Of a stretch of 64,000 nucleotides of DNA, positions 47,859-64,000 are shown in pieces. This DNA is from Candidatus Eiseniibacteriota bacterium (GTDB taxonomy: Bacteria; Eisenbacteria; RBG-16-71-46; JABDJR01). The stretch spans positions 352,001 through 416,000 of the forward strand of contig CAVXKA010000003.1 in NCBI GenBank assembly GCA_963762255.1, given 5' to 3'. A model generated the notes under the pieces. The model had not been told where the DNA came from and did no database searches. It saw only the letters and a program-made list of their open reading frames with translations. Numbering within the stretch: the stretch's first letter is position 1; each line of letters begins with the position of its first letter. Made by a program: the position numbers and the translations under genes.

Positions 47859-48002
47859 GGGCTTCTCCCTATTGGATCTTCGCTTCGAACAACTCAGGTG
47901 GACAGAACCCTGAGGATCTCCATGACTCGAGCGAGGTCATGGTCATCATGATTTGCAGCAACGCCGGCACGAGGTCCACCGGAATATGGGGACACGATGA
48001 GA

Positions 48003-48293
48003 CTATCGGGTTTCATGGGTCTGGGTTCCATCTTCGGTCGTTACCCGCAACTGCGAATCAGACGAAGCTCGGGAGTCCACGAACGCATTGTACGCGGCCA
48101 GTACACGGGCCGTCATGATCTCCCCGAATCCAGGCGCCATGGGATACTCGGGCAAGCGCACCTCGAACTCACCGTCTGCATGCTCCAGAATCTTAACGCC
48201 CCGCCACACAAGAACGTCATCGAAAACCACGGTGGCCAAAGCTTTGAGCGGGCCATTCGCTGCGGGAATGATCTTGACGACTGTTGTCTCCAC
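48003..48293 (-). CDS. Second, more diverged SpoVG-like protein
   Basis: GPLKALATVVFDDVLV.RGVKILE...VLAAY; RBS GGAGG. Confidence 0.65.
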   Translation of the reverse strand: METTVVKIIPAANGPLKALATVVFDDVLVWRGVKILEHADGEFEVRLPEYPMAPGFGEIMTARVLAAYNAFVDSRASSDSQLRVTTEDGTQTHETR

Positions 48294-48352
48294 ACTTCCC
48301 TCCGATGAACATCACCAGGGATCCAGGAGCCGCGGCTTTGTGCCGCCAGGAT

Positions 48353-48680: not shown

Positions 48681-50798
48681 TCACCCTGGATACTGCACCG
48701 GCACGAACTTCATGAGCATCAACCAGTCCTGCGTCTCCCCCAGCATCATCTCCTCCGCTTCGGTCAGTATTCGGCGGATCTCAGCAATACTCTCGGCATC
48801 ACCCAGTCGCTCCTGGAGCTTGCGGAGTTCGATGGCCATGTTGCGGCTCCGCTTGCCGAGCCGGGAGTACTCACGGTGACTGCGGAACCCACCGAGCGCC
48901 GCGCCGACCGCAGGCAGGATGATGGCGGCAAGCGTCAGGGCGCTGCTGAGCAGGGTTTCATGGTGCCCCTGGCGAGACACGGCCACATGAGCGGCCGCCG
49001 CCACCATCGCGAGAAGGAACACCGCGGTCCCCCATCGCTCAAGGCGCATCCCCATCCGCTCGCAATCTCTGGCCTTGCCCTCGTGATACTTGATCTGGTC
49101 GCCCACCCAGGCCTTCCCGGCGAAGTCGCGGATGGTCTCGCACGAGCCGCCGATGTGGGTTTGCCGCCGTGAAAGTCGGGTCCAGATCTCGTTGAAGGCG
49201 AGCACCATCCATTGATCGCGCTGCTCGACATCCCCCATGTACGGCGGCACGCGGAGCGTCGACACTTCGCATCCGCAGGCGGCCAGGAAGGCAGCGCACC
49301 TTATGCGCTCGGTCAGGAATCGGGTCTCGATCCAGCTCCGAAGGCTGCGACGCCGATCCGCATGGATCACGACGCCGGCGATGATCGTCAAGAGCAGGAA
49401 CTCGATCCCGAACGCCGCCATCGACAACGAGGGCATGTGGATTCCGACGGCGACCGCGGCGATCGCGAGCGGGAACAGCAGCCAGACGAGGCTGCCCGCC
49501 CTGCGGTACAGTCGCTGGCTCTTCTTGGCGAGGTACGAGGCCTTAGCGTAGTAAGGGAGGAGGTCCTTGCGGACGAGTTCCCTGTTCTCTTCCGGGAGCG
49601 TGTTCCCCTCCGCCGAGCTGAAGATATCTTTGCGGACATTCTCGACGTAGCTTTCCACCTGCTTCCGTCCCGGCGAGTATCCGTTGAAGGTGTCGAGGCG
49701 GGTGATGGACTTGGCGTTCAGGCCGTTGCCGCGCGTCACCCGGATCAGGGAGGGCGATCCGGGTTGAATGTGGATGATGGGCCGCTGCTTGCGCTCCGCG
49801 AAGGCGCGGACTGAGTCGGCGGCCATGCCGAGTGTGCCCGGAGGTTCGACGAGAACGAGCACGTCGCAGTGGTTCACGATGAAGCGACCGGCGCGTCCCG
49901 GCGGTTCTTGCGGGATCTCGCTCTCGACCTTGGCGCCAAGGACCTGATGGAGCCCATCGGCAAGCTTACGTTCCACCTCGGCGTCCGGCCTCGCGAGGAC
50001 GCTGTATACGATCGGCGTGTAGCGAGCTTCAGCGAGCTGCTTTCTCGATGGGGGGTCGAAAAGGCCCAGGATCGCGCCGGGCAGGAACGAGTCTAGCGTT
50101 TCACGCATGCCGTCCGTGGATTCGACGCCTCCTGCGGCCACGACTCCGATCCGAATCCGATAAGGCAAGGCAGGCATGAGATCCGAGTCCGGCGCGTCCG
50201 ATTTGGCGGCGAGTGCGTCCCCACCGAGAACCTCGAAGTTCTCGAAGGTCACCTTCCCCTGCTTCTCGCCGAGAGAAGTAGGCTCGTTGGTGTGGGGATT
50301 TCGATTCCCGGCATGGACCCACGCGATCGGAACGCCTCGCTCGCGCGCGAGTCGGACGATCGCTGCCGTTCCGCCTCGCCCCTGCCCCTTCTTTCCGTCC
50401 CAAACCGCAATGAGGATGTCGGATTGATCGAGGACCGCTGCGCCGGCGGCTTTGTAGGACTCCCCGCGTGTCGGCGCAGTTGGGAGCTCGATGCAGCAGG
50501 TGGCGCGGCCCAAGAGCTGCTCGAACTCCGCCCTTGATTGTGGAGAGGCGAAGTCCTTGGCGTATACGTCAGCGGGCATCGGGAGGATGGCGAGAAGCCG
50601 CGCTTCGGGGTGACGGTCGAGCACATGGGCGGCGACGACGCGATCCGCGCCTTCGGCGAGGGGCGAGACCACGACAACGGAGCTGCCGGGGGACGCGGCC
50701 TCGATACGGCGGAGAGCTTCCTCGATCCCGGCCTTGATCCTGCTCGCGTCCGCAAGAACACGGTGTCCGGTGACGCCGATGCGGACGAGGGACGCCAT
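48681..50798 (-). CDS. SLOG domain, degenerate second SLOG and two SLATT-like 2TM modules (705 aa)
   Basis: RIGVTGHR, SPLAEGADR, SDILIAVWDG...GRGGTA; second RIGV...FIVNHCDVL; two TM pairs followed by W...R...E.IR and helical tails. Confidence 0.75.
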   Translation of the reverse strand: MASLVRIGVTGHRVLADASRIKAGIEEALRRIEAASPGSSVVVVSPLAEGADRVVAAHVLDRHPEARLLAILPMPADVYAKDFASPQSRAEFEQLLGRATCCIELPTAPTRGESYKAAGAAVLDQSDILIAVWDGKKGQGRGGTAAIVRLARERGVPIAWVHAGNRNPHTNEPTSLGEKQGKVTFENFEVLGGDALAAKSDAPDSDLMPALPYRIRIGVVAAGGVESTDGMRETLDSFLPGAILGLFDPPSRKQLAEARYTPIVYSVLARPDAEVERKLADGLHQVLGAKVESEIPQEPPGRAGRFIVNHCDVLVLVEPPGTLGMAADSVRAFAERKQRPIIHIQPGSPSLIRVTRGNGLNAKSITRLDTFNGYSPGRKQVESYVENVRKDIFSSAEGNTLPEENRELVRKDLLPYYAKASYLAKKSQRLYRRAGSLVWLLFPLAIAAVAVGIHMPSLSMAAFGIEFLLLTIIAGVVIHADRRRSLRSWIETRFLTERIRCAAFLAACGCEVSTLRVPPYMGDVEQRDQWMVLAFNEIWTRLSRRQTHIGGSCETIRDFAGKAWVGDQIKYHEGKARDCERMGMRLERWGTAVFLLAMVAAAAHVAVSRQGHHETLLSSALTLAAIILPAVGAALGGFRSHREYSRLGKRSRNMAIELRKLQERLGDAESIAEIRRILTEAEEMMLGETQDWLMLMKFVPVQYPG

Positions 50799-50968
50799 TA
50801 CGCCCACGTGATCCGGTAGCCGGCCCGCTTGACCATGTCTGGGAAGTGCACTACGGAGTTTCGGTCCTTCTTCTGGTCTGTTTCGGACAGCTCTGCGTAG
50901 GGCACCAGCGCCGGATGCAACTTGTTCGCATCATCGCGTTCGTCCACCCAACTGTCCTCCTTTTCCAC
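50798..50968 (-). CDS. Mini RyR-domain ORF (49-56 aa), absent from the ORF track
   Basis: (VEKEDSW)VDERDDANKLHPALVPYAELSETDQKKDRNSVVHFPDMVKRAGYRITWA*; GTG at 50968 or 50947 (AAGGAGG 8 nt upstream); TAATG overlap with the SLOG gene. Confidence 0.65.
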   Translation of the reverse strand: MEKEDSWVDERDDANKLHPALVPYAELSETDQKKDRNSVVHFPDMVKRAGYRITWA

Positions 50969-50973
50969 GTGAT

Positions 50974-53900
50974 CTACGTGCCCTGATCATCGGTACCGAC
51001 GCCATCGGTCGGCGGTTCAGACCCAGCAAGGACTTCGATCGCGAACGGATTCAGTCGGACCGCCTTCGTGCAATGGGGGCAACATCCAAGGAGCCGGGCA
51101 TCCGAGAAAGCGGAATCCGGCAGGTCCAAGCATGGTGATTGACCCGGTCGGAGGGCGTCCATGTTGGATACGATGAGGGCCACCGCGGGGCTGGAGATTG
51201 CGGATTCTTGGTTACACCAGGGACAGTGGATGGAGAGTGAGCCCGTGCGCGCCGAGACCCGGGAAGCGGTGCAGATTCCGGGGCCAAGGGGGACACCCAC
51301 AAGGTCGTAAGTCGACACCTCACCGACTCTAGTCCCGCCAACTGCGCGGTTGAGACGGGCAGAGAAGGCAAGGGCCTCCCACGGCGCAGTCCCCTTCACA
51401 ACGGTCCGGGGCTGTCCGCTCTCCACGTCCCACACTCGCAGAGTCTCGTCGTCACTCCCCGACACCGCGCGGCGACCGTCCGGCGTCACGCTCACGCTCC
51501 TGACCCCCGAGCTGTGGCCTTCCAGCGTGCGCAGGCAGCGTCCGCTCTCCAGATCCCACACCCGCAGCGTCTCGTCGTCACTCCCCGACACCGCGCGCCG
51601 ACCGTCCGGCGTCACGCTCACGCTCCCGACCCCGAGCTGTGGCCTTCCAGCGTGCGCAGGCAGCGTCCGCTCTCCAGATCCCACACCCGCAGCGTCTTGT
51701 CCCAACTCCCCGATACCGCGCGCCGACCGTCCGGCGTCACGCTCACGCTCCCGACCCCGACGCTGTGGCCTTCCAGCGTGCGCAGACACCGCCCGCTCTC
51801 CAGATCCCACACCCGCAGAGTCCGTCGTCACTCCCCGACACCGCGCGGCGACCGTCCGGCGTCACGCTCACGCTCCAGACCGTCGACGCTGTGGCCTTCC
51901 AGCGTGCGCAGGCAGCGCCCGCTCTCCAGATCCCACACCCGCAGCGTCCCGTCGATCACTCCCCGACACCGCGCGGCGACCGTCCGGCGTCACGCTCACG
52001 CTCCCGACCCGCCAGCTGTGGCCTTCCAGCGTGCGCAGGCACGCGCCGCTCTCCAGGTCCCACACCCGCAGCGTCTTGTCCCAACTCCCCGACACCGCGC
52101 GGCGACCGTCCGGCGTCACGCTCACGCTCTCGACCCGCCGAGCTGTGGCCTTCCAGCGTGCGCAGGCACGCGCCCGCTCTCCAGATCCCACACCCGCAGC
52201 GTCTTGTCCCAACTCCCCGACACCGCGCGCCGACCGTCCGGCGTCACGCTCACGCTCCAGACCGTCGACGCTGTGGCCTTCCAGCGTGCGCAGGCACGCG
52301 TCCGCTCTCCAGATCCCACACCCGCAGCGTCTTGTCCCCACTCCCCGACACCGCGCGGCGACCGTCCGGCGTCACGCTCACGCTCCTGACCCCCGAGCTG
52401 TGGCCTTCCAGCGTGCGCAGGCAGCGCCCGCTCTCCAGATCCCACACCCGCAGCGTCCCGTCGTCACTCCCCGACACCGCGCGGCGACCGTCCGGCGTCA
52501 CGCTCACGCTCCCGACCCCCGAGCTGTGGCCTTCCAGCGTGCGCAGGCAGCGCCCGCTCTCCAGATCCCACACCCGCAGCGTCTTGTCCCAACTCCCCGA
52601 TACCGCGCGGCGACCGTCCGGCGTCACGCTCACGCTCCCGACCCGACCGAGCTGTGGCCTTCCAGCGTGCGCAGGCAGCGTCCGCTCTCCAGATCCCACA
52701 CCCGCAGAGTCCCGTCGTCACTCCCCGACACCGCGCGGCGACCGTCCGGCGTCACGCTCACGCTCCAGACCGTCGACGCTGTGGCCTTCCAGCGTGCGCA
52801 GGCAGCGTCCGCTCTCCAGGTCCCACACCCGCAGCGTCCCGTCGATACTCCCCGACACCGCGCGGCGACCGTCCGGCGTCACGCTCACGCTCCTGACCCG
52901 CCGAGCTGTGGCCTTCCAGCGTGCGCAGGCAGCGTCCGCTCTCCAGATCCCACACCCGCAGCGTCCCCTCGTCACTCCCCGACACCACGCGGCGACCGTC
53001 CGGCGTCACGCTCACGCTCCCGACCGTCGAGCTGTGGCCTTCCAGCGTGCGCAGCAACGCGGGCTTCGGGTTGTAGTGGATCTCAGAGGACCAGTGCTGC
53101 AGGAGCATGGGCACACCTAGGGAATAAATGGACTCAGCGACCACCGACCTCACGGGATCGCCAGGTGGACGGTTGAAGGCGTGCTGGGCCACGAACCCCG
53201 GCCACCCGCCGAACTCCAGTAGGGGGTAGCACTCCGATTCGACGAAGGACCCGAAGGCTCGCAATCGGTCGAGTCGCGTCGGGTTCTCGACGATCCGCCG
53301 GCACTCTTCCTCCAGCCGTTCATCGCTCCACGGCTCGACCGAAGGGATGATCTCCGGAAGCGGAGGCGTCTCCTCGCCCCCGTTCCACTTGCGAGCGTAG
53401 TCCACAATCTCTTGCGTCCATCGCGCTGCCCGCGCCTCATGGCGCTCCAGCTCCAGCACCTCCGCTTGCGCCTCGGGCAATGCGGCCAGGACTTGGTGAT
53501 AGTCGCGAATCAGATCGAAGATCTGGCCCGTCCGGATTCGGTCTTCGATGTAGCTCAGATCGGTCAGGAGCGTCTCCAGCTTGTCCCACTGGTGAGTCGC
53601 GATCAGGTGGGCCGGCAAGTGGGCCAGTGTGTAGGCGGATAAGTGCCTTGGCTGCGCCTCGAATTCCCGCCAGCATTGCCTGGCGAGCCGGTTCTGCCCC
53701 TCTTCCATCGACGTGGCGAAGTCGGCGCTGGCCTCGGGATCGGTCAGCCAATCGGCCAGGCTCTGGTGAAACAAGCGCCTCCCCCCGGCGTCGCCGCCCA
53801 AGAACTGCGATAGCGCGGTGAGGCCACGTTTCGTCGGGTGAGGGGCCATACCTGACGCCGCACGCAAGAAGTCGTCCGGCAGTGGCCCCGATGCCGCGAC

Positions 53901-55259
53901 CAGGCAATCCAGCAGCGGTAGCACCTCACTGTCGTAGGCGACACGGTCCTTGAATCGTTTGCGAAACATCGCATGATAGAGGCCGCCTAGTTTTCGGGGT
54001 AAGGCCCCTAGGTCGTCCAGGTCCATCCGCGTCCATGGGTCGCCTTCACCGAGTGCGTCAAGCGTCAGCCTGGCGAACAGGAAGTTGCCGTCCGCCAGTT
54101 CGGCCAACTTCGACGTCGTGCCCGCCTGGCGGGGAACCCTGCCGGACTCATAGAGTCCATCGAGCCGCCGTTTGATGTAGGCAGAAACATCGCGACGGTT
54201 CGGCTCGCCGCCGGCATCGAGATGGCGGCATTGAATGCCGTCCACTTCGAATCTCGCGAGGATGCTCCGGTCGGGCCGGCTTGTGACCACGATGCGCAAG
54301 AAGTCCGGCACGCGGGCCGCCGAATCGGCCAATAGATCCGCCAAGCCGAAGCCAATTTCGGCGACTGATTCATCCAGACCATCCACGATGAAGGTCCAGG
54401 GCTGATCCACCTGGAGCCGGTCGCGGATCTTGCGGAGCGGATCGGCAACCAATGTCCGGAAGAGCGACTCGGGGGGATCCGCCCAGTCGGGAGAGACGGG
54501 CAAGGCCTCCATCACCTCACGATAGGCCGAGAACTGGGCAGCCAGTTGATAGACCAGACCGCGAAGCCAAGAGTCAGGTCGACAAGACTCGATGATCGAG
54601 CGCGAGCAGAAATGGACGCCGCGCACATTGAGCCGCACGCTCATCTGCGCCGCCGCCGCGCTCTTGCCGAACCCTGGTTCAGCGGTAACCAGCAGCAAGC
54701 GAGAACCCGGGGCCTCCACCCACTCCTGAACTTGCTCGAAAAGCCATTCGCGGCCCGTGAAGCTGCCCCCGTGACGGGCGAGTTCTTCTTCGAAGTACCG
54801 TTGCTGCAGGTCGGCCCACCACACCTTGGATGGCCGCGCTGATCCCCAGTCTCGAAAGCCCATGCCTTTGCCGGCCGCAACTTGATCGATGGCGGCCGGA
54901 AGCTCTTTGAACGCCGTGTCGGGATCCGTGGCGGCGTCGATGTAGTTAAGGGACACCACCTGGATGGGAGGAGTCACGTCCGCGATGCGTACGGGGATGA
55001 TCAGCTTCTTGTAGGACTGCGCGAACAGGATCTCGTTTCGACAGAACCCTTCGGGGCGAAGGCTCCAGGGCGACAGTACGGCGATCAGCGCGTCGCTGTC
55101 CGTGATGCCCATCTCGATGCGGAGGTCAAACGGAGCACCGACGGGAATACCGTTCTCGACGTCGAGCCACGGTTCGTGGTTCTGCTGCCGCAGCCACTTA
55201 GCAAGCTGTCCTGCAAACGCCGTTGCGTCGTTGCGGCCGTAGCTGATGAAGATGCGCAT
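50974..55259 (-). CDS. TIR-NACHT/STAND-WD40 NLR-like protein with C-terminal Zn ribbon; frameshifts inside the repeat array
   Basis: IFISYGR...FCRNEI (TIR, catalytic Glu kept), FTGREW, AEPGFGKS, IVDGLDE, VVTSRP; WD40 repeats; CPWC...CPHC. Confidence 0.88.
51415..53055 (-). repeat. 13 near-identical ~126-bp WD40-coding repeats
   Basis: CCTTCCAGCGTGCGCAG recurs 13 times at ~126-bp spacing (about 51518 to 53038); unit LRTLEGHSxxVxSVSVTPDGRRAVSGSxDxTLRVWDLESGRC. Confidence 0.93.
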
Positions 55260-55302: not shown

Positions 55303-58203
55303 CTACGACCTTGCGGAATGGGTACTGAGAGACGAACTCATGCGCGCCCACGTGATCCGGTAGCCGGCGAGCCCGACCACGTCCGGGAAGTGCAATACGG
55401 AGTCCCTGTCCTTGTCCTGGTCGGCGTCGGGCAACTCGGCGTAGGGGACAAGCGCCGGATGCCGCCTCGCGGGGTCATCGCGCTTCTTCCCGTGGCGCCA
55501 GCCGCTCCGGAGCCGCTGATCCATCCAACCGTCGTGCTCGGCCTCGGCCAGGCGCTCCAAGTGGTACTCGAGATGCTTGCGGATGGCGGCAACCGACTCA
55601 CTCGATGCCTCCTCACTAGATGCCTCGCCCCCCTCCAGACGCAGTCCCGCAAGCGCGAGGGCCGCTGGAATGCGCCGAGCAGCCGCGCGGTTGTCTTCTT
55701 TGTCTACAGAGTCGAGATCCGCGTACGGCTTGTCAAAACGGCGTGCGACCTTCTGCTGCTTGTCTCCGGACAAGATGAGGTAGTTCTTGTGGATCGCCGC
55801 CGCGAGAGCTTCTATGACATCGTCCTGGCCGAAAGGCGCGTGCTCGTCAAGGATCTTGTCGAAAGGCGGCAGGTTGACGTGCATCCCGAGCTGTGGCCGA
55901 GGCGGCAGGGATGAGCGCCGGATGGCCTGCCCTTCGTATGAAGGCTTGAGCGACTGCACAAGCTTCTCGACGGACCGTGCGCCGTGAGTGTACTTGGGCA
56001 CTCGCAGAAGCGCCGCGAGCAGCTCGGGGTCGAAATCGAGCCGAGCATCCTTCGGGACACCCAAGTGCGCTCGAATCAGCAGCGCACGACGAAGGGGCGC
56101 ACAAACGTCGTTCTTTTCGGACATCGGGTCGTCACTACCATCCACGTCAGCAAGACCTTCGCTTCTTGGGTTGGGACCGAGTACGTTGAGATAGGCATCC
56201 AGGCGACTGTGGAAGTCAGGACCCTTCTTGAGTTCGAACTTTCGCCACGCGTCCATGTCGAATCGGGTTGTACCGGGCTTTGGCGGTCCAAACTCCTCGA
56301 ATGTGTGGCTTGTGGCGCCGGCGAAAATGAAGACGCACTTCCCGACGGCGTGACTGATCTGCCCTTCCTGGAAACGCCCGTCCTGCATAGGGGCGAGGAG
56401 AAACTGCAGCCAGTCATACTCACGCGAATCGAATTCGTCCCAGAATACGACCGGAGTGGCTCCACCCAACACAGCGTCGCGGACTTGGTGGAATGCCCCA
56501 ATCAGGTCTCCCACATCCTTGAACTGCGACAGATTGAACTCCCGCCACGCTTCCTTGCCGAAGACGCTGTTGGCGAGTTGGTGCACCCCAAAGGACTTCC
56601 CCGCACCTGGCGGGCCAAAAACACCGATAGAGAGCGGCCTCTTCGCCCCACTGTCCTTCTGGTACTGAATCATCAGCCGTTCGATGCTGCGAAGCGCCTC
56701 GATCTCGAATCGGTCGGCGGTAAGGAGTTTCCCGAACCGTGCATGCGGCAATCGCGCGATGGCGGCTTCACCCCAGAGCACCGTCTGAGTTGCCAATCCC
56801 AGCAAGGACGGCAAATCAGTGGAGCCGAACCGTGATTGAGACATCTCGACGATCTGCCAGACTCTCCTCTGGTCGGGGTCCTTCGGACTCCCGGCATACG
56901 GAGCCCGTTCTTTGTCAGTCCACGGCACCGGTGTCTCCGCGAACTCGTTGCTGCCGGCCACAATGACCTCGGCCAGGCGCTTCGCTGGAAACCCCACCGG
57001 CAATTCCTCGGCAATGGGATGCGGATGCTCTGAAACGAGACCGTGACCCAGTTTCCGAAGATCTCTCATGCCACAGAGTCCGGCCTTGACGGCCGCGCTG
57101 ATCTTGGGCTTCTCCGGCCCGCGCATGATGGCTCGGACCAAGGCCGCGACCATGCAGGACATGTAGCCAAAGGCTTCACCGGGGATCGAACGAGCCCACG
57201 CACCCTCCGCGCCATCGGCATCGAAGACCAAAGTCGCATGTGGCTCCGGTCCGGTGTTGTCAAGCCAGAGAGCGCCATCAGCAGAGAATGTGACAATGAG
57301 GTGCTGGGGCCTTGATGCCATCTCCCGCAAGTTGCGGTCGGATCCCAGCGCCTTATGCAACTCCATGACCGTCCGTTCCCAGGAAAGCCCCGAACCCAAC
57401 TGAGCATGCTCCTGCCTCAGCTCATGCGCGGAGAGGACGACAATCAACTTCTTCGAGTGTTCTTCCTTCAATCGGTGCCACAGATCTCCCTGGCACACCG
57501 GGGCGCTCATCTTCAGGATAATCCACTCGGGCTGCTTCCCCGCTCCCGGGGGAAGCAACCAGCACTCCTCGGCGGCCTGATGACGAAACATGAAGCCTGC
57601 ATCGTCCAGCACAAGCACCCTTGGAGTCGCGGGTGACGGGTCATCAAGCTCCGGCGTGCAATCGGTACAGGGGCCAGTTCCGTCATCGGGGGAGGATTCG
57701 TCATGACCGTAGCCCATCAGGAGGTCCGCACGCCAGACCTGCTTCGGATTCCGGGGACTTGTCGGATCCAGAGGAAACGGCTTCCAGACCGCAAGTGCGT
57801 GATGGCCGCAGGGAGTCTTGTCCGCAGGGGGCATCTTGAGCGGGCACTCCACTTCCCACTGAGCCTCCGGTGCCGGTTTGTGGTTTGCCAGTTCGCCTCT
57901 CGCCTTTACCAGCGCCGTCTCTGCCTCGCTAATCTCCAGTTCCACTCCTCCGTTGCACCGGAGTTCCTCGAGCTTCGCCTCGGCATCCTGGACGGCCTTC
58001 TCTCTTTCCTCCTTCTCATTCCCCGCCACTTTCTTCGCACGTGCAATCGCGGCGTCGATGAGACGAGTCAGCGCCATCGCGCCCCCGGGCTCTCGGACTA
58101 CCCTCACCCCCTGCCGTTCAACGGCAGAAGCAGTGTGGCGCTTGCCTTCATAGATATGGTGATCCACTACCACGTCGCCAGTGACGAGAATCTTGTCTGT
58201 CAT
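55303..58203 (-). CDS. PfkB/HldE-like N-domain, AAA+-type P-loop ATPase and C-terminal RyR domain (966 aa)
   Basis: ILVTGDVVVDHHIY.G...PGGA; GVFGPPGAGKS, VVFWDEFD; LAAAIH..Y...LAEAEHDGW...GWRHG..RDD..R.HPALVPY.EL; RBS GGAGGTG before ATG 58203. Confidence 0.82.
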   Translation of the reverse strand: MTDKILVTGDVVVDHHIYEGKRHTASAVERQGVRVVREPGGAMALTRLIDAAIARAKKVAGNEKEEREKAVQDAEAKLEELRCNGGVELEISEAETALVKARGELANHKPAPEAQWEVECPLKMPPADKTPCGHHALAVWKPFPLDPTSPRNPKQVWRADLLMGYGHDESSPDDGTGPCTDCTPELDDPSPATPRVLVLDDAGFMFRHQAAEECWLLPPGAGKQPEWIILKMSAPVCQGDLWHRLKEEHSKKLIVVLSAHELRQEHAQLGSGLSWERTVMELHKALGSDRNLREMASRPQHLIVTFSADGALWLDNTGPEPHATLVFDADGAEGAWARSIPGEAFGYMSCMVAALVRAIMRGPEKPKISAAVKAGLCGMRDLRKLGHGLVSEHPHPIAEELPVGFPAKRLAEVIVAGSNEFAETPVPWTDKERAPYAGSPKDPDQRRVWQIVEMSQSRFGSTDLPSLLGLATQTVLWGEAAIARLPHARFGKLLTADRFEIEALRSIERLMIQYQKDSGAKRPLSIGVFGPPGAGKSFGVHQLANSVFGKEAWREFNLSQFKDVGDLIGAFHQVRDAVLGGATPVVFWDEFDSREYDWLQFLLAPMQDGRFQEGQISHAVGKCVFIFAGATSHTFEEFGPPKPGTTRFDMDAWRKFELKKGPDFHSRLDAYLNVLGPNPRSEGLADVDGSDDPMSEKNDVCAPLRRALLIRAHLGVPKDARLDFDPELLAALLRVPKYTHGARSVEKLVQSLKPSYEGQAIRRSSLPPRPQLGMHVNLPPFDKILDEHAPFGQDDVIEALAAAIHKNYLILSGDKQQKVARRFDKPYADLDSVDKEDNRAAARRIPAALALAGLRLEGGEASSEEASSESVAAIRKHLEYHLERLAEAEHDGWMDQRLRSGWRHGKKRDDPARRHPALVPYAELPDADQDKDRDSVLHFPDVVGLAGYRITWARMSSSLSTHSARS

Positions 58204-58290: not shown

Positions 58291-59001
58291 TTACTTGGTA
58301 CCGGGCCCGGTGGAGCCCCCACCCACCACCATCCCCACCCTCTCCCCCACATCCATCATCACCATCTCGGGAAAGTCAGCATCCCGTAGGTACGCCATGA
58401 CCGATGCGACGCCAATAGACACCCCCGCCATCGCCACATGCGGGTCGGGCGAATCCGCACAGGTTCCTCCCCAGGACTCGTCATCGCCGTAGAGGGTCGA
58501 CAAGTACTCCTTCAATCCCTCCCGTCCCCGCACCGTGTGACAGCGCACCACGGTCCCCCCGATCCGAACGTCCACCAGCAGACCCAGACTGCGATCCTGC
58601 AATAGCGCCTCGGCAGCCCGCCGCCGCGATTCCATCGTATCCATCCCGAACAGCACGATCGGTCCTGAAGGCCCAACCGCGCCGTCGGGGTACTTCGCGG
58701 GGATCCCCTCGATGGCCACGCCGGGGCACACCTCGTGGATCAACCGCGGCAGCGCCTCCACCTTCAACCGCCGGCGACGCACGTCCGCAGCGCGATAGAA
58801 CTGCACCCCAAGATTTCGCGCGGGATCCAGACGGTCATGGTCGTAGACGCGAATCGACCGGATGCCGGCCATGGCAAGCGCAAGGCACGCGAATGAACCG
58901 GTGCGCCCCGCCCCGATCACACTGACACGCGCCATTTCGAGCCTGCGCTCGAACTGCGACGGTCGCTGGCGGCTCATGTCCCACTCCCCTGTTTTTCGCA
59001 T
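58291..59001 (-). CDS. ThiF/E1-family adenylating enzyme (236 aa)
   Basis: VIGAGRTGS, VYDHD, NLGVQFY, KVEAL, GMDT..SRR, VDVRIG, Cys in GGTC; RBS GGAGG. Confidence 0.85.
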   Translation of the reverse strand: MRKTGEWDMSRQRPSQFERRLEMARVSVIGAGRTGSFACLALAMAGIRSIRVYDHDRLDPARNLGVQFYRAADVRRRRLKVEALPRLIHEVCPGVAIEGIPAKYPDGAVGPSGPIVLFGMDTMESRRRAAEALLQDRSLGLLVDVRIGGTVVRCHTVRGREGLKEYLSTLYGDDESWGGTCADSPDPHVAMAGVSIGVASVMAYLRDADFPEMVMMDVGERVGMVVGGGSTGPGTK

Positions 59002-59711
59002 GGCTCCTCCGGAATCGCCTGGTATCGCACAATGCGGATGTGTCGCCGCACATGCGGCGGGATCTCGCCGAGGCGTCGCCGCACGATCGTGCACCCCACC
59101 CGCTGCGCTGCGCGCAAGACGAGCGGATGACACGGCCATGTGCCGTCGTCTGAGAACGCCACGGCGGGGCGTCCCACCGCCGCAAGCACCGCCGCCAGTG
59201 CGATCCTCTCGTCGGGCATGATGTACTCGAGCTGCCGTCGCTCTCGTTGGGATAACGCGCCGTAGATTCCCCCACCGACGCCCAGTCCGAAGGATTCAAT
59301 GCGCATCGGGTGACCAGATGCCGTCAGGAACTCGGCTCGAGAGGCAATCTCCGTGAGGCGGGCAGGCGGTGCGAGGTACGCGCGCACGCAGACGCGCTGG
59401 ACGCGCACGCCCGGATACTGTCGCTCGCGATCTAGGATCTTGAGGCCGGTCACGAACCGCGCTGGGTTCGAGCCATCCACGTCGGGCCTCTCGCACCACG
59501 TTTCGTCACCCGGCGGTGATACGAGTCGGATGGCGGTTGGCACGAATTCTTCCCAGGCCGGCCGCGCGTTCGCGTGATCCTGCAACGCGAATGCTAAAGC
59601 CGCCGCATTCCCGCCATCGGACTCCGGCTCCACCCGCACCGACGCCGCCACGAACGCCAGAAACTGCCGAAGCGCGAATACGCCGCGGTCGCCGGGAAAG
59701 TCGTTGGCCAT
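58974..59711 (-). CDS. Hypothetical protein (245 aa) inside the Ubl-E1 operon
   Basis: TGATG overlap with the upstream gene and overlap with the E1 start; no JAB HxH motif seen. Confidence 0.65.
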   Translation of the reverse strand: MANDFPGDRGVFALRQFLAFVAASVRVEPESDGGNAAALAFALQDHANARPAWEEFVPTAIRLVSPPGDETWCERPDVDGSNPARFVTGLKILDRERQYPGVRVQRVCVRAYLAPPARLTEIASRAEFLTASGHPMRIESFGLGVGGGIYGALSQRERRQLEYIMPDERIALAAVLAAVGRPAVAFSDDGTWPCHPLVLRAAQRVGCTIVRRRLGEIPPHVRRHIRIVRYQAIPEEPCEKQGSGT

Positions 59712-60313
59712 CAGAGATTCCTCCGAGCCCAGGCAAGGGCCACTAGAACAAGACCGCACAGGTCGAGACGCTCGACGGCAGTTTCGAGGAGAGGGGTGGC
59801 CTCGCCTCGGCATGCGCCGTGACGGCCCGGCTGGATGAACATCGACTCCTGCCCCGCCGCAGTGGACCTGCGAATGAAGACCGGGAAGTGAGGAGCCGGT
59901 GGAAGCGGAAGACAGATCTCGAAAGCGTTTCCAGGGGCTGAGGCGCCTTCGGCCACAAGCGGGCGCACGGTCGCGGTCACCGCGGCCTCGGCCACCACCA
60001 ACCGCTCGAACGGGACTCCATCAAGCAGGACCATCAACCGATTCAGCTCCCGCCTGGCGCGAGGGAGAGGAAACCGGCGCGCGCGCTCGACGCGGCGCAT
60101 CGCGAGCGTCACATCCGCCATGTCGAGATCCCATACCTCGGGCTTCGGACCTATCTCACCGAGCAGAGGCTTGCAGCACGTGAGGAACTCGCGTTGCGCC
60201 TGAAGACCGCGAGCCGCCGCGCCGCAGAACTCCTGCAGGAACGCCGCCAGAACCTCGCGCGCTTGCTCAATCGACTCCCGGGGAGACCCCGGTTGAAGAA
60301 CCACTTCTTCCAT
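59711..60313 (-). CDS. Hypothetical protein with a possible divergent prokaryotic E2-like C-terminal domain (200 aa)
   Basis: Helical N-terminus, beta-rich middle, then GRHGACRGEATPLLETAVERLDLCGLV, resembling the C-x-G plus helix end of Prok-E2 domains; start uncertain. Confidence 0.5.
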   Translation of the reverse strand: MEEVVLQPGSPRESIEQAREVLAAFLQEFCGAAARGLQAQREFLTCCKPLLGEIGPKPEVWDLDMADVTLAMRRVERARRFPLPRARRELNRLMVLLDGVPFERLVVAEAAVTATVRPLVAEGASAPGNAFEICLPLPPAPHFPVFIRRSTAAGQESMFIQPGRHGACRGEATPLLETAVERLDLCGLVLVALAWARRNL

Positions 60314-60407
60314 GGCGTGTCGTGCGCTGGATGGACCGGCGCCGGCGGCAGCGGAAACCGCCACCGGCGCCGGTGCGCATTCCTCCCTTGTTTGTTGTGC
60401 TCGCCGA

Positions 60408-60659
60408 TCAGCCGCCGCGGATCCGCGGGACGTAGGCGAGCGTGACGTCGTGGGTGTGGTCCACCGGCTTGTCGAGCTCGGTGGGCGCACCATCCAGGAA
60501 CAGATCCCAACCCTTGTCGCGCGGCGTCGTACCGGCTGCGCGGATCAGGTCGGCCGCGGTGACCCCTTCGAGCAGATCAACGCTGGCCTCGACACCTTCA
60601 CCGAGCACCCGGACCGTCGCACGATGCGGTCGGGCACCTCGTTCGGGAAACGTCCCCAT
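60408..60659 (-). CDS. Ubiquitin-like beta-grasp protein ending in di-glycine (83 aa)
   Basis: ...TAADLI...LFLDG...LAYVPRIRGG*; strong RBS AGGAGG/AAGGAG. Confidence 0.85.
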   Translation of the reverse strand: MGTFPERGARPHRATVRVLGEGVEASVDLLEGVTAADLIRAAGTTPRDKGWDLFLDGAPTELDKPVDHTHDVTLAYVPRIRGG

Positions 60660-60747: not shown

Positions 60748-60762
60748 GCAAGAGCGATGCCA
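60748..60762 (-). promoter_or_regulatory. Sigma54 (-24/-12) promoter
   Basis: TGGCAT-CGCTC-TTGC fits TGGCAC-N5-TTGC with GG-N10-GC spacing, ~90 nt upstream of the Ubl ATG and next to a sigma54 activator gene. Confidence 0.85.
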
Positions 60763-60785: not shown

Positions 60786-60886
60786 GTGCGCAACACGATG
60801 CTGCGCACGTGACTCAGGCGGAGGGTGGAGGGACGGTCAGAGCTGCCGGGTTGCCTTGATCTACCCGATCTTCGGGTGAACAAGGC
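60786..60886. promoter_or_regulatory. Two inverted repeats, candidate activator-binding sites
   Basis: GTGCGCA-N9-TGCGCAC (60786-60808); GCCTTG..ACCCGA-TCT-TCGGGT..CAAGGC (60853-60886). Confidence 0.5.
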
Positions 60887-60892
60887 CGACGA

Positions 60893-61942
60893 TCAGGCGG
60901 GCTGCTTGGGGGGGCGCTTGAGTCCCGCGCGACGCATGCGGTCGCGCACGGTGTCCGGCTTGACCTTGAGCAGGCGCGCGGTTTCGGAGACGTTCCAGTG
61001 GCAGAGTCGCAGGACGGATTCCAGATAGCAGCTCTCGAATCTCTCGGCCGAGAGATCGTGTCCCCCGCCGTCGATTCGCGAGTCGGACGCGGCGCGGGGC
61101 CTTCCGAACGCCGCCGGAGGCAGATCGCCGATCTGGATTACTTCGCGCCGGCCGGCATGGTAGAAGGCCCAGATGACGACCTTCTCCAGCTCCCGGATAT
61201 TGCCCGGCCAATCGTACGCGAGAAGAGATTTCAACGCCGCCCGCGAGAAACGTCGAGCGCGATACGTCTTTCCTGCCTCGCAGGCGAGGCGGGAGAGGAA
61301 CGTCTCTGCGAGGCCGGGGATGTCCTCCCGCCGTTCGTTCAGGCCCGGCATCTCGATCGTGAACGTGCTGATCCGGAAGAAGAGGTCATCGCGGAACTCG
61401 CCGCGATCGACCCGTTCGGTAAGGTCGCGGTTCGTCGCCACAAGCACGCGCACGTCGCTCTTCACTTCGCGGTTCCCGCCGAGGCGCCGAAACCGCCGGT
61501 CCTGGAGAAAGCGCAACAACATCACTTGAGTTAGCGGATGGATGTCGCCGATCTCATCCAGAAAGACGGTGCCGCCGTCGCTTCCCTCGATGAGCCCGAC
61601 GCGACGCTGCCGGCCGGCATCGGTGAAGGCATGGGCCTCGTGCCCGAAAAGCTCGCTGTGGACGAGGGTCTGGGAAAGCCCTGCGACCGGGATGACGCAA
61701 AACGGCGCGTCCTTGCGTCGGCTGAGCCGATGGATCACTTCGGCCAGGAAGGACTTGCCTGTACCGCTGCTGCCGGTGATCAGGACGGTCTCTTCCGTCG
61801 GAGCCATCCATGCCACCGCGCGTAGCACCTTGCGCGCCGCTTCGCTCTTCCATACCGGTGGTAAGAGGCTAAGGTCCGCGCAGGCGAGTGCCTCCACGGT
61901 GCGGGTGACGATCTCGGACTTGGGTTCGAGGTTGGGGGCCAT
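60893..61942 (-). CDS. Sigma54-dependent activator (AAA+ and Fis HTH) lacking an N-terminal sensory domain
   Basis: ITGSSGTGKS, ELFGHEAHAFTDA (GAFTGA variant), GGTVFLDEIGD, FRDDLFFR, WPGNIREL, WNVSETARLL. Confidence 0.92.
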   Translation of the reverse strand: MAPNLEPKSEIVTRTVEALACADLSLLPPVWKSEAARKVLRAVAWMAPTEETVLITGSSGTGKSFLAEVIHRLSRRKDAPFCVIPVAGLSQTLVHSELFGHEAHAFTDAGRQRRVGLIEGSDGGTVFLDEIGDIHPLTQVMLLRFLQDRRFRRLGGNREVKSDVRVLVATNRDLTERVDRGEFRDDLFFRISTFTIEMPGLNERREDIPGLAETFLSRLACEAGKTYRARRFSRAALKSLLAYDWPGNIRELEKVVIWAFYHAGRREVIQIGDLPPAAFGRPRAASDSRIDGGGHDLSAERFESCYLESVLRLCHWNVSETARLLKVKPDTVRDRMRRAGLKRPPKQPA

Positions 61943-62017: not shown

Positions 62018-64000
62018 TCAGAGTCCTCCTGTCGATTGACGGAAGATCGAGACGACCTCAGGGCCGAGTTCCTGAAGCCTATCGAGGATTTCGGAGCGCG
62101 ACATGTCCATTTGCCTCAAGAGCGCCGCGTAGTTCATGACGGCTGCCTGCAGGTTCGGGTGCGGATGACCCGTGGCACGGGTGAACTGGAGAAGGATGCT
62201 CACGTGGCGACGACTCAGCGGTTCGGCCTCCACCAGCCGGTTCGTGTCCTGGAGCAACTGAGCTAGGTTGTTGAGGGCGCTCGCGACATTCGGGTGATCC
62301 CGTCCGAGCCTGTTCTCAAAGATCGCCAGTGCGCGGCGCACGAGGGGTTCGGCCTCTCCCTGACGCCTTGCGCCCTTGAGCAAGCCCACCAGGTTGTTAA
62401 GGCGGATGGCGACCTTGGGGTGGTCGTTCCCGTACCTCTGTTCGTCGATCACCAGCGCGCGGCGCATGAGGTCTTCAGCCTCCGCCGGCCGGTTCGTGAC
62501 TTGGAGCAAGAGAGCCAAGTTGCTGAGAGCGGTCGCGACGTTTGGATGGTCCCGTCCACGGATTCTCTCAAAGATTGCAAGCGAGCGGCGGTAGAGAGGC
62601 TCAGCCTCTCCCAGCCGGCCCGTGGCCTTGAGCAATTGGGCCAGGCTGTTGAGAGCCATCGCGACCTGGTGTTGATCACCGCCACAGCCCTGCTCGCGAA
62701 TCGCCAGCGCGCGGCGCATGAGCGGTTCGGCCTCCGCCAATCGGTTTGTGGCGTAGAGCAAGCCCGCCAAGTTATTGAGGCGGATGGCGACACTTGGGTG
62801 GTCGCTCCCGGAGCTCCGCTCGTCGATCGCCAGCGCGCGGCGCATGAGCGGTTCGGCCTCCGCCAGCCGGTTCGTCGCCTGGAGCAATTGAGCCAGGTTG
62901 CTGATAGCTGTCGCGACCACTGGTTGATCCTCTCCGAGGTCGCTCTCCGAGATTGCCAACGCACGGCGCAAGAGCGGTTCGGCCCGTGTCCACTCAGCTA
63001 GGGTGTACCACCATAGCCCCACTTGACTGAGCAGCCATGCCGCCCATGGATAGGCCCCCTCTGCCCATGCCTCGGCCAAGGCATCCAGCGGCTCCAACTC
63101 CCAGCGCGCCTCCTGCCACCGCGTCGTCGTCTCGAGAACGACGACCCGGTCGCGCACGAAATTGAGTACGCGCTCTCGCCTGGCGGCCAGATGATCAGCC
63201 GACAGGCTCTGCTGCATCAAATCCTGCACCAACCGATGCACGCGCACGACGCGCGCCTCGCCTTCTTCGCCCTCTCCGCGGGTGATGAGCGCCAGCCGCC
63301 AGAGCATGCGGCAGATCCGATCCCACGGCTCCTCGTACCCGGGGGACACGGACACGCCGATCTCGGGGAAGTCACTCGCCACCAACTCCCGCAGCCACGG
63401 CAGCGGCACCGCATCAGGGGCCAGAAGTGCCGCGTACTCCATCGCCCGGCGCCCCGCCGGTTCCAGTCCCTCAATGGAAGGCCCGAGGACGGCGTCCAAC
63501 CGGCGCTCATGATCGTGCTGGCGAAGGGTTACCTCGCGATCCGCGGCCAAATCATCCAGCGCTTCGAGGTCTTCCAGCCCGAGCCGCTCCAGGAAGGCCG
63601 GGTACGTCACGCCGGCATGCACCTCCAGCCACGCCGCCACCAACTCCACCGCCAATACGAACCCGCCCAGCCGTCTCACGATGCGGTGCGCCGCATCACG
63701 TTCGGCGTCGTCCGCGAATGGTCGGTGCTTCTCCAGCAGATCCACCGCGTCCACTTCCGGAAGCTCGCCCAATGTGACCCAGTTGCCATGCGCCCCGGCG
63801 GGAGGCGCGAGGCGCGTGGTCGCCAGCAGGTGAAGGCTTGGCCCCAAACTGGTGAGGGCATCTGTCTGCCTGGGGGACAGCAGGTCGAGGCCGGTCACGT
63901 TGTCCAGCACTAGGAGGATGCGTCCATGGCTATCAAGTCGTTGGCGGAGACAGTCGTAGATCGCCGCGAAGTGCCGATCTGGGCTCTTGCGCTCCTCATC
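62018..64000 (-). CDS. NB-ARC/STAND-TPR protein, 5'-partial (continues beyond the window)
   Basis: Frame open to 64000; ILLVLDNV Walker B, LATTR, LGGFVLAV, VHRLVQ; about seven 42-aa TPRs (EAEPLMRRALAI...HP.VA..LNNLA.LL). Confidence 0.88.
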   Translation of the reverse strand, partial: DEERKSPDRHFAAIYDCLRQRLDSHGRILLVLDNVTGLDLLSPRQTDALTSLGPSLHLLATTRLAPPAGAHGNWVTLGELPEVDAVDLLEKHRPFADDAERDAAHRIVRRLGGFVLAVELVAAWLEVHAGVTYPAFLERLGLEDLEALDDLAADREVTLRQHDHERRLDAVLGPSIEGLEPAGRRAMEYAALLAPDAVPLPWLRELVASDFPEIGVSVSPGYEEPWDRICRMLWRLALITRGEGEEGEARVVRVHRLVQDLMQQSLSADHLAARRERVLNFVRDRVVVLETTTRWQEARWELEPLDALAEAWAEGAYPWAAWLLSQVGLWWYTLAEWTRAEPLLRRALAISESDLGEDQPVVATAISNLAQLLQATNRLAEAEPLMRRALAIDERSSGSDHPSVAIRLNNLAGLLYATNRLAEAEPLMRRALAIREQGCGGDQHQVAMALNSLAQLLKATGRLGEAEPLYRRSLAIFERIRGRDHPNVATALSNLALLLQVTNRPAEAEDLMRRALVIDEQRYGNDHPKVAIRLNNLVGLLKGARRQGEAEPLVRRALAIFENRLGRDHPNVASALNNLAQLLQDTNRLVEAEPLSRRHVSILLQFTRATGHPHPNLQAAVMNYAALLRQMDMSRSEILDRLQELGPEVVSIFRQSTGGL

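Follow-up and report, generated by a model that had tools for sequence, protein, structure and literature searches.

Four tightly packed minus-strand genes, at positions 58291-60659 of the window (the whole 64,000-nucleotide stretch of DNA analyzed here), encode a ubiquitin-like modifier (Ubl), an E1 and two further conserved proteins, P0001 and P0002, and may be a new bacterial way to tag proteins. We tentatively read this operon, with a confidence somewhat short of even, as a sigma-54-induced module for Ubl activation and cysteine-relay conjugation. The initial annotation had described a compact operon at this place, and this observation holds, as all four open reading frames were found on the minus strand. 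Listed from the upstream end, and together with the gene that follows them, they are:

60408..60659, minus strand: Ubl, 83 aa (open reading frame and SAMP2-type profile matches)
59711..60313, minus strand: P0001, 200 aa, candidate E2-like Cys carrier (open reading frame, alignment and AF2 model)
58974..59711, minus strand: P0002, 245 aa, family-less conserved protein; candidate adaptor, regulator or target (open reading frame and AF2 model)
58291..58977, minus strand: E1, 228 aa, single-domain ThiF-family adenylyltransferase (Pfam ThiF)
55303..58203, minus strand: protein of 966 aa in which a P-loop/AAA-like region is followed by a C-terminal RyR domain, candidate member of the system

The stop codon of P0001 and the start codon of P0002 have one base in common (TGATG), and the stop of P0002 overlaps the start of the E1 gene as ATGA. 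P0002, described initially as a coupled protein of no recognized kind, is thus translationally coupled on both sides, and it matches no known family. Since the Ubl, P0001 and P0002 have conserved relatives and the E1 scores above its Pfam cut-off, the four genes are more than chance open reading frames. Equal longest-contig sizes were found among the relatives of different operon members (45,865 for P0005 and P0011; 7,772 for P0006 and P0044). A scan of 58-61 kb detected no intrinsic terminator, and a scan of 55-64 kb gave no Rfam match.

The first gene, preceded by the Shine-Dalgarno sequence AGGAGGAAGGAG, encodes the modifier. The Ubl of the window matched Pfam SAMP2 with an E-value of 1e-4 (23.1 bits, under the cut-off of 27), and five of the six family members matched it at E ≤ 0.01, the best at 9.6e-6. 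Searched against the PDB, the family profile found SAMP2 4hrs_A first (E 1.1e-3) and 2l32_A second (2e-3), and a weaker likeness to ThiS was seen in NCBIfam (ThiS, E 0.023) and in PDB 1rws (0.019). The window copy and its five relatives all end in exactly YVPRIRGG, with the GG directly before the stop codon, so that in all six the Gly-Gly end is available for adenylation without processing. The 83-aa modifier ending in RIRGG that had been proposed is therefore borne out, its beta-grasp type being suggested by the SAMP2 profile matches, and its assignment as a SAMP2/ThiS-like modifier is, at the level of sequence profiles, probable.

The last gene encodes an E1 that matched Pfam ThiF (PF00899) with an E-value of 5.8e-15 (55.5 bits against a cut-off of 28.1). 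PADLOC E1-E2 models also matched it, down to 1.7e-8. The best NCBIfam models were those of ThiF (1.6e-13), with 50.7 bits against a cut-off of 159, and the protein stayed far under every cut-off of the ThiF and MoeB models; the NCBIfam model of the SAMP-activating E1 UbaA gave a weak match (4.5e-4). Among PDB sequences, the best match was PaaA 5ff5_A (E 9.4e-6), over residues 3-74 only. The motifs GAGRTGS, K72, D113, R118 and Cys173, the latter within TCAD, are present. When aligned with one MoeB and one Cap2, the E1 was found to share G22, G24, G27, D46, D48, N55, K72, D113 and R118 with them, while Val58 replaces the Arg of the NLxRQ/NLGRH motif found in both references. We take these residues to serve in nucleotide binding and adenylation, and Cys173 presumably occupies the position where E1 catalytic cysteines lie. 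Both CxxC pairs of the aligned MoeB are absent, and the TCAD Cys is kept. There is neither a separate Cys domain nor a UFD, and 228 aa leave no room for an extra domain. The Pfam match and the MoeB alignment thus agree with the earlier description of a minimal ThiF/E1 with no zinc CxxC motifs and a Cys past the adenylation core, and the ThiF family assignment, judged by profile, is solid.

P0001 was predicted by AF2 (pLDDT 83.4, pTM 0.80) to have a three-helix bundle at its N terminus and, at its C terminus, an alpha/beta domain with an H165-G-x-C168-R-G loop. Its five relatives share 39-92% identity, and all six sequences, the window copy included, have H165, G166, C168, R169, G170 and the C-terminal WARRNL without variation. 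The most conserved stretch is 161-200, with a mean top-residue frequency of 0.81-0.85 against ~0.6 elsewhere. In the model, a helix (82-98) is followed by five strands within 102-159, the loop with H165 and C168, and two helices (172-181 and 185-199), which as modeled is the order of a UBC core; the Cys loop itself (162-169) is the least confident part, with pLDDT < 50.

The E2-like protein with a HGACRG motif that had been proposed here was only partly recovered. The motif is present in the window copy, with its Cys as the invariant Cys168, but the E2 identity found neither profile nor significant fold support. A UBC fold in 59711-60313 was not substantiated by Foldseek, which returned only sub-threshold E2 matches: no PDB match was found at E ≤ 0.001, and all the matches listed had E ≥ 0.25 and a probability ≤ 0.63. 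E2 chains (4mdk_B, 7m2k_G, 8oif_L and 8hsb_B, probability ≤ 0.33) made up four of the 43 weak matches listed, a raw count that takes no account of the E2 share of the library, and the bacterial CdnG-associated E2 superposed, again below threshold, with an rmsd of 3.0 over 64 columns. No family was found for P0001 in Pfam, PADLOC, NCBIfam or PHROGs; no member out of six had a relevant E2 match in Pfam even at E ≤ 10, nor was there an E2 match in NCBIfam or PADLOC. Compared by hhalign with nine Cap2 E2 domains, the C-terminal half gave an E-value of 0.29, the same level as the negative controls (0.5-0.7), and with only two residues between them (HxxC), its His and Cys lie much closer together than those of the aligned Cap2 domains. 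On the model and the alignment, we regard P0001 as a candidate E2-like Cys carrier, its E2 assignment not being solid. A language-model resemblance to an integrase SAM-like domain (0.91) shared few features and was read as reflecting a helical bundle only.

P0002 has 30 matches at E ≤ 0.001 among 1.84 billion cluster representatives. Foldseek had been suggested as a means of placing it; its AF2 model is confident (pLDDT 87.3, pTM 0.85), but no match to the PDB or BFVD was found at E ≤ 0.001. Nothing of relevance appeared in Pfam at E ≤ 10. D79, E121, E157 and S187 are the sole acidic or nucleophilic residues kept in at least 80% of 28 sequences, among which there is no conserved Cys, His or Lys. 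One of the 28 relatives had a marginal ThcOx match (E 0.049).

Several identities were tried for P0002 and rejected. It did not appear as a paralogue of P0001 (an hhalign comparison of the two alignments gave nothing), as a second E2/RWD-like domain (E 0.9 with Cap2 E2 domains), as a degenerate E1 partner (E 0.29 with P0003) or as a JAB protein (E 0.17 with eight Cap3 JAB proteins). An "AcrVA2-like" label given by a language model (0.86; in 12-16% of the cluster members) found no support in Pfam or BFVD. Weak RNase H-like and reverse-transcriptase matches recur in both Foldseek lists of P0002 with TM-scores of 0.1-0.2, which we note as a lead only. A predicted complex of P0001 and P0002 scored 0.30 against a mark of 0.32, with controls absent, and counts neither for nor against binding.

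The P0001 and P0002 families are very rare. A tblastn search with both proteins against 72,556 plasmids and 50,697 phages gave no match, and the E1 had three weak MoeB/ThiF/Cap2 matches in the plasmids. A profile search of genome contigs with the P0001 alignment produced 156 pattern matches, none of which was confirmed. With the six-sequence alignment of P0002, one of 40 pattern matches was confirmed, over just 43 residues (L001), and is probably spurious. A full-text literature search found no description of this gene set; papers on the E1-like and RING/treble-clef families could describe related operons.

The region upstream of the Ubl gene yielded an observation that is new to this follow-up, a predicted sigma-54 promoter between that gene and an activator that lacks a sensor:

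60748..60762, minus strand: -24/-12 sigma-54 type promoter element TGGCATCGCTCTTGC, its end 88 nt upstream of the Ubl ATG
60786..60808, no strand assigned: palindrome GTGCGCAACA / TGCTGCGCAC, close to the -24 element on its upstream side
60893..61942, minus strand: sigma-54-dependent activator with AAA+ and Fis-type HTH domains, directly upstream of the operon

The pattern TGGCAYNNNNNTTGC, which we take to be the sigma-54 promoter consensus (-24 GG / -12 GC), was found only once on both strands of the 64 kb, at 60748-60762, where 0.18 matches would be expected; the expectation for the minus strand of the 233-nt gap between the Ubl and activator genes is ~3e-4. The activator matched Pfam Sigma54_activat (6.9e-56) and HTH_8 (9.3e-8). 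It also matched the PADLOC RtcR_PspF2 CARF_AAA_HTH model (7.9e-85) over profile positions 171-480 only, and the CARF part is therefore missing, leaving the protein without an N-terminal sensor domain. Its loop reads HAFTDA in translation; the consensus loop of sigma-54 activators is GAFTGA. The palindrome is a possible binding site for the activator.

On the other side of the operon, 87 nt separate the E1 stop from the RyR-domain gene, whose ATG is at 58203; this is exactly the distance given initially. This gap holds no terminator-like site and one sigma-70-like match (58251-58223). The 966-aa product matched Pfam RyR (9.8e-16), had weak AAA matches and resembled ryanodine-receptor repeats of the PDB (down to 1e-28). 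The operon has SLATT, TIR-NACHT-WD40, RyR/AAA and TPR-STAND genes as neighbors, of which the adjacent TIR-NACHT-WD40 gene looks frame-broken, and the GC3 of the operon stretch is 0.72-0.81, lower than the 0.82-0.92 of five genes of housekeeping type in the window. By the Pfam domains of its neighbors, the setting looks like a conflict island, in line with the defence-like context that had been suggested, and these neighbors, in this one window, would be consistent with an anti-phage role.

The seven main genes were scanned for domains, and so were 113 of the 137 stop-to-stop frames of at least 75 aa at 47-64 kb, the other 24 being genes scanned already or frames within the array of WD40 repeats. 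Neither set contained a JAB/MPN domain, and the scanned frames contained no rhodanese, thi/moa, RING or UBC domain, nor any cysteine desulfurase, ThiG/H, MoaE, PP-loop ATPase or radical-SAM domain. The absence of a JAB peptidase and of nearby thi, moa or sulfurtransferase genes, both claimed at the outset, was thus confirmed for this region.

In the conjugation reading, the sensor-less activator would switch on the promoter at 60748-60762, from which the Ubl, P0001, P0002 and the E1 would be expressed as a single translationally coupled unit. The ThiF-type E1 would then adenylate the exposed C-terminal Gly83 of the SAMP2-like Ubl, and the activated Ubl would form a thioester on Cys168 of P0001, either via Cys173 of the E1 or directly, with P0001 acting as the E2. 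P0002, which has no catalytic-looking residues, would select the protein target or be the target itself. There is no peptidase; therefore, the Ubl would need no processing and the operon itself would not remove the mark. In favor of this reading are the SAMP2-type Ubl with its invariant GG, the homology of the E1 to Cap2 E1 parts, the invariant His165 and Cys168 of P0001, the coupled genes, the promoter with its activator, the defence-type neighbors and the lack of sulfur-pathway or JAB domains in the scanned frames at 47-64 kb. Against it are the failure to find a sequence relation between P0001 and any E2, the low model confidence of the Cys loop, its short HxxC spacing, Val58 of the E1, the ThiF models as best NCBIfam matches of the E1, and an association with defence-type genes seen at a single locus.

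Known conjugation systems resemble this arrangement in part. Like Bil, the operon has separate genes for a Ubl, a small Cys-bearing protein and an E1, with tagging as the proposed output and a defence-like setting, and its order (Ubl, E2-like protein, P0002, E1) presumably recalls the Bil components with P0002 replacing the peptidase. Bil is defined by a JAB peptidase (BilC) and a multidomain IAD-AAD-CYS E1 (BilD) (PMC11601596), whereas here there is no JAB, the E1 is one 228-aa adenylation domain, the protein in the E2 position matches no E2 profile, and an extra 245-aa family-less protein is present.

Bub (6E / DUF6527) is also a diverged Ubl/E1/E2 set accompanied by a protein whose family was initially recorded as unknown, and type II Bub is usually devoid of a JAB (PMC11601596). 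The same paper describes an oxyester chemistry, an E1 and an E2 that lack catalytic cysteines, and DUF6527 as a serine protease. The present operon differs in having Cys168 and Cys173 and in its unfused E1 and candidate E2, and DUF6527 matched none of the operon genes or scanned frames at 47-64 kb.

The E1 is homologous over nearly its whole length to the E1 parts of Cap2 from type II CBASS, a proven conjugation system, for which loci L003-L011 served as references (nine Cap2 E1 parts; hhalign probability 95.8, E 7.5e-9, residues 10-225). However, the operon has no CD-NTase, E2-E1 fusion, Cap3 or cyclic-nucleotide effector, and its substrate is a beta-grasp-type Ubl. The initial claim of a system distinct from known ones thus stands, the defining composition of Bil, Bub and type II CBASS being absent in each case.

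Among the other explanations, a sulfur-carrier function is unlikely. The Ubl, once adenylated by the E1, would be thiocarboxylated, Cys168 would relay a persulfide, and P0002 would use the sulfur to form a thio-metabolite or a modified nucleoside. SAMP2/ThiS-type proteins and ThiF-type E1s also serve as sulfur carriers, and the operon has, like ThiS/ThiF and MoaD/MoeB, a small GG-ended carrier and a ThiF-family adenylyltransferase. The Ubl resembles SAMP2 and ThiS (NCBIfam and PDB 1rws), the top NCBIfam matches of the E1 are ThiF and MoeB, Cys173 lies within a MoeB-type TCAD motif, and there is no recognizable E2 or DUB. The CRGEAT loop of P0001, placed after a strand and before a helix, also recalls what we take to be rhodanese-type active-site loops. 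However, the P0001 sheet is modeled as consecutive strands with no helices between them, unlike the rhodanese fold. The NCBIfam equivalog cut-offs for ThiF/MoeB are missed widely (50.7 bits against 159), the E1 lacks the zinc CxxC pairs of MoeB, no Cys, His or Lys is conserved in P0002, and the scanned frames at 47-64 kb contain no sulfur-pathway domain. Two unrelated conserved partners stand in place of thi/moa partners; their families are very rare, and the genes are part of an island whose GC3 is lower.

It is fairly improbable that the E1 alone attaches the Ubl, as in SAMP/UbaA-type conjugation, with P0001 and P0002 as targets, regulators or effectors. Archaeal SAMPs are conjugated without any E2, and both the SAMP2/UbaA and the bacterial TtuB/TtuC systems work without one and double as sulfur carriers. 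Here too, the Ubl has SAMP2 proteins as its nearest sequence relatives, and the E1 consists of one adenylation domain whose crossover region carries a Cys, presumably as in UbaA, whose NCBIfam model it matches weakly (4.5e-4); P0001 is not demonstrably an E2. Against this, conservation in P0001 is highest at the invariant His-x-x-Cys-Arg-Gly loop, which looks like an active site, and all the downstream genes are tightly coupled in translation, as would fit a stoichiometric machine. The operon also differs from these systems by its two additional coupled conserved proteins, one of them carrying this loop, its bacterial host and its predicted sigma-54 promoter.

A peptide modification of the MccB/PaaA type, where an E1-like enzyme adenylates a small protein for chemical change and not for protein attachment, is very improbable. 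PaaA is the best PDB match of the E1 and one P0002 relative has the marginal ThcOx match, but the former is limited to the nucleotide-binding part common to all E1-like enzymes, a SAMP2-like domain of 83 aa with a GG end, not a short leader-core peptide, is the substrate, and no exporter, peptidase or immunity gene was found in the scanned frames at 47-64 kb. Finally, a decayed Bil, Bub or CBASS remnant, with the peptidase gone and the E2 drifted, is hardly credible, in spite of the Bil-like gene order with P0002 in the peptidase place and the frame-broken TIR-NACHT-WD40 neighbor, as the four open reading frames are intact and coupled, P0002 showed no relation to JAB by hhalign, and proteins of the same 200 aa and 245 aa, with invariant motifs, are found again at identities of 39-92% and 24-81%, respectively, a recurrence that indicates purifying selection on a distinct architecture.

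The conjugation reading also has a bolder form, which we consider doubtful: P0001 would be a Cys-dependent Ubl carrier that does not descend from the UBC family (or has diverged far enough to start a lineage of its own), P0002 a specificity factor of a new kind, and the operon, with its bare ThiF-type E1 and SAMP2-like Ubl, a further, independent, sigma-54-induced and eraserless tagging lineage housed in a STAND/TIR island.

The biochemistry of three bacterial ubiquitin-like conjugation lineages, type II CBASS, Bil and Bub, has been worked out, and each changed views on the origin of eukaryotic ubiquitination and on bacterial phage defence. Of the parts that are universal, the operon described here keeps both, with the Ubl as well as the E1 reduced to the simplest form; in place of the rest it has two conserved proteins for which neither family libraries nor solved structures offer an explanation. 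If Cys168 carries the Ubl, this would be a very small conjugation machine, a test case for the rise of E2 function and an example of Ubl tagging under sigma-54 control. If it takes part in a sulfur relay instead, the operon would point to a thio-compound pathway that is new. In both cases, structural and biochemical studies have well-defined targets in the P0001 and P0002 families.

The four genes of the operon are arranged head to tail, all on the minus strand, and the initial annotation's account of them held when ORFs, motifs and spacing were re-derived: coordinates, lengths, the RIRGG end of the ubiquitin-like protein (Ubl) and the HGACRG motif of P0001, the protein encoded after it, were all correct on re-reading the sequence.

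60408-60659, minus strand, Ubl gene (83 aa)
59711-60313, minus strand, gene of P0001, the HGxCRG protein (200 aa)
58974-59711, minus strand, gene of P0002 (245 aa)
58291-58977, minus strand, E1 gene (228 aa)

A strong ribosome-binding site, AGGAGGAAGGAG, precedes the Ubl gene, and a 94-nt gap separates this gene from P0001. One base is common to the stop of P0001 and the start of P0002 (TGATG), the P0002 stop overlaps the E1 start as ATGA, and 87 nt lie between E1 and the next gene, whose 966-aa product carries an RyR domain at its C-terminus. Within the Ubl/P0001 gap (60314-60407, minus strand), AAGGGAGGA is immediately followed by an ATG at 60380, which opens a 37-codon ORF out of frame with P0001 and spanning its start; it may serve as a coupling ORF or have no role at all. 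No clear ribosome-binding site was seen ahead of the ATG of P0001 itself.

SAMP2 was the only family signal of the Ubl, with the window copy at E 1e-4 (below the Pfam cut-off) and five of the six family members at E <= 0.01; the top PDB matches of the family profile were SAMP2 structures (1.1e-3 and 2e-3). The E1 scored above the ThiF cut-off and missed all ThiF/MoeB equivalog cut-offs by a wide margin, and in an hhalign comparison with nine CBASS Cap2 proteins it proved homologous to their E1 parts over residues 10-225 (probability 95.8, E 7.5e-9). Aligned with one MoeB and one Cap2, the window copy has kept its glycine-rich loop, and Asp, Asn, Lys, Asp and Arg are retained at the aligned positions; Val58 replaces an Arg of both references. 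Both MoeB CxxC pairs are absent, and a TCAD motif is common to E1 and the MoeB; its cysteine, Cys173, is placed where catalytic cysteines of E1 enzymes are found. This alignment confirmed the earlier description of a minimal E1 without CxxC motifs but with a cysteine.

The E2-like character first proposed for P0001 was examined in sequence and in model. No relevant Pfam family was matched at E <= 10 by any of six members, NCBIfam, PADLOC and PHROGs gave no match, and nothing relevant was found among PDB sequences. Against a reference profile built from the E2 domains of nine Cap2 proteins in annotated plasmid CBASS loci, the C-terminal half reached an hhalign E of 0.29, with negative controls at 0.5-0.7 and E1, the positive control, at 7.5e-9. 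By sequence, P0001 has no demonstrable relation to any E2. The AF2 model, confident overall (pLDDT 83.4, pTM 0.80) with a poorly modelled Cys loop, predicts a bundle of three helices (12-98) and, after it, one helix, five strands, the His165/Cys168 loop and two helices; the modelled order after the bundle is that of a UBC core. In a Foldseek search with the whole model there was no match with E <= 0.001, and 4 of the 43 rows listed were E2 enzymes (Cdc34 twice, UBE2L6 and a bacterial CdnG-associated E2, the last with rmsd 3.0 over 64 columns and probability 0.33), most of the remaining listed rows being helical bundles aligned to the N-terminal part. These sub-threshold matches are at most suggestive of an E2-like fold.

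P0002 was also modelled confidently (pLDDT 87.3, pTM 0.85), and its model had no match at E <= 0.001 in PDB or BFVD. The protein matches no family in Pfam, NCBIfam, PADLOC or PHROGs, and appeared unrelated to P0001, E1, Cap2 E2 domains and Cap3 JAB peptidases when compared with them. Across 28 sequences no Cys, His or Lys is conserved, and conservation among acidic and nucleophilic residues is confined to D79, E121, E157 and S187. This pattern favours a role in binding or scaffolding over that of a hydrolase or a lysine acceptor. Complex prediction for P0001 with P0002 gave no verdict either way.

The operon consists of genuine, conserved genes of rare occurrence. Among 5.8 billion protein clusters, a word-seeded search returned five relatives each for the Ubl (59-96% identity) and P0001 (39-92%). 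HMMER, run in full over 1.84 billion representatives, matched P0002 30 times with E <= 0.001, 22 of these at E <= 1e-10; every match to the operon proteins is named only "hypothetical protein". All six Ubl sequences end in an identical YVPRIRGG with nothing beyond. In P0001, H165, G166, C168, R169 and G170 are invariant (6/6), as are the last six residues, WARRNL, and residues 161-200 form the most conserved stretch. Relatives of different operon members have the same longest contig size (45,865 for P0005 and P0011; 7,772 for P0006 and P0044), which fits, without proving, their co-location elsewhere. No tblastn match to P0001 or P0002 was found in 72,556 plasmids and 50,697 phage records, and pattern-based scanning, done twice over a set with one genome for each GTDB species, yielded no convincing relative. 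The sole confirmed match of the P0002-based genome scan, 43 residues at 40% identity on a Cyclobacteriaceae MAG contig (L001, 8001-8141), is probably spurious.

Upstream of the operon lie the elements of a candidate sigma-54 control.

60893-61942, minus strand, sigma-54-dependent activator with AAA+ and HTH domains only, without a sensor domain
60786-60808, palindrome of 10+10 nt, GTGCGCAACA / TGCTGCGCAC, 24 nt upstream of the -24 element
60748-60762, minus strand, -24/-12 pattern match TGGCATCGCTCTTGC in the activator-Ubl gap

The activator sits 233 nt upstream of the Ubl operon on the same strand, only 75 nt from its own upstream gene. Its best PADLOC match is the RtcR/PspF-like CARF family, the CARF part being missing, and its sigma-54 contact loop reads HAFTDA, against the consensus GAFTGA. 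TGGCATCGCTCTTGC is the sole match to the -24/-12 pattern on either strand of the whole window, where 0.18 would be expected (~3e-4 in the gap in this orientation). The palindrome is a candidate activator site, nearer the promoter than usual. Between E1 and the RyR-domain gene, no terminator-like site was found and a sigma-70-like match is present.

The operon belongs to a series of minus-strand genes running from ~48.6 kb to the window end (SLATT_1, TIR-NACHT-WD40, RyR/AAA, Ubl operon, activator, TPR-STAND), with a GC3 of 0.72-0.81 in these island genes vs 0.82-0.92 in five metabolic genes further left. A six-frame Pfam scan of 47-64 kb, covering 113 of the 137 frames of at least 75 aa (the other 24 being genes already scanned or WD40-array frames), detected no JAB, rhodanese, ThiG/H, MoaE, desulfurase, UBC or RING domain, in agreement with the reported lack of JAB, thi, moa and sulfurtransferase genes.

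Several neighbours merit description. The 966-aa protein (55303-58203, minus strand) combines a P-loop/AAA-like region at about residues 520-640 with a RyR domain matching PDB ryanodine-receptor repeats down to 1e-28, a part it has in common with PHROGs families of unknown function; for its first 520 residues there is no match in Pfam or among PDB sequences. In the TIR-NACHT-WD40 gene (51416-53054 and 52758-55259, minus strand) the WD40 part is a 126-bp tandem array of 12.9 copies (92% matches, 1% indels), whose minus-strand frame is broken several times and whose repeats are spread over at least five ORFs; either the gene is a pseudogene or the near-identical repeats were misassembled. Another conflict-type gene (48681-50807, minus strand) marks the left edge of the lower-GC3 stretch; its 708-aa product carries a C-terminal SLATT_1 two-TM effector domain (E 8e-9), and its N-terminal part gives weak SLOG/vWA-like signals. 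Between the aminotransferase and SLATT genes (47174-48311, minus strand) are two SpoVG-like frames (47535-47936, 8.2e-13; 48006-48311, 2e-6) and a phosphopantetheine-attachment frame (47174-47626). Numerous TPR_10/TPR_12 repeats (NPHP3-like) characterise the STAND-type protein that makes up the island's right flank (62018-64000, minus strand) and continues past the window end.

By the reading of its genes the operon works most like Bil, without Bil's defining JAB and multidomain E1. It has neither the DUF6527 nor the want of catalytic cysteines that define Bub, and lacks the CD-NTase, Cap2 fusion and Cap3 of CBASS, for which annotated reference loci were also used (definitions from sections 3 and 5 of PMC11601596). 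The operon is distinct from Bil and type II CBASS, as initially proposed. In the part of Iyer et al. 2006 (PMC1779556) used here, operon types 6a-6e are all listed with a JAB or a fused E1, and none has the present gene set; the gene set also differs from the JAB, E1, RING E3 and Ubl-E2 described, in the part drawn on, for conflict systems of multicellular bacteria (Kaur et al. 2020, PMC7159879). Parts of PMC10557695, PMC11601603 and PMC12355090 entered the same comparison. Full-text literature searches, supplements aside, gave no description of an operon of Ubl, HGxCRG protein, 245-aa protein and minimal E1; "not in print" is therefore provisional.

We lean, at slightly less than even confidence, towards a sigma-54-induced module of Ubl activation and cysteine relay, in which the sigma-54 route would switch the module on, P0001 would take the E2 role in the relay and P0002 would be a specificity factor or target. 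Two other readings draw on the SAMP2/ThiS-ThiF flavour of the Ubl and E1, the two recognisable proteins, and on P0001 not being a proven E2: a sulfur-carrier relay, which we consider unlikely, and E2-independent SAMP-like conjugation with P0001 and P0002 not being relay enzymes, which is a shade more doubtful. Both are weakened by the absence of any sulfur-pathway gene, by the invariant loop of P0001 that looks like an active site, by the coupled genes and by the position in a conflict island. MccB/PaaA-like chemistry is very improbable, and decay of a known system still more so.

The initial interpretation is supported in part, in the Ubl and E1 families and the missing JAB, and not in the E2 identity of P0001. 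The operon belongs to the prokaryotic Ubl/E1 systems, and its P0001 and P0002 families are new to the libraries searched. It is rare and compact, and its key claim would be a putative E2-like thioester carrier.
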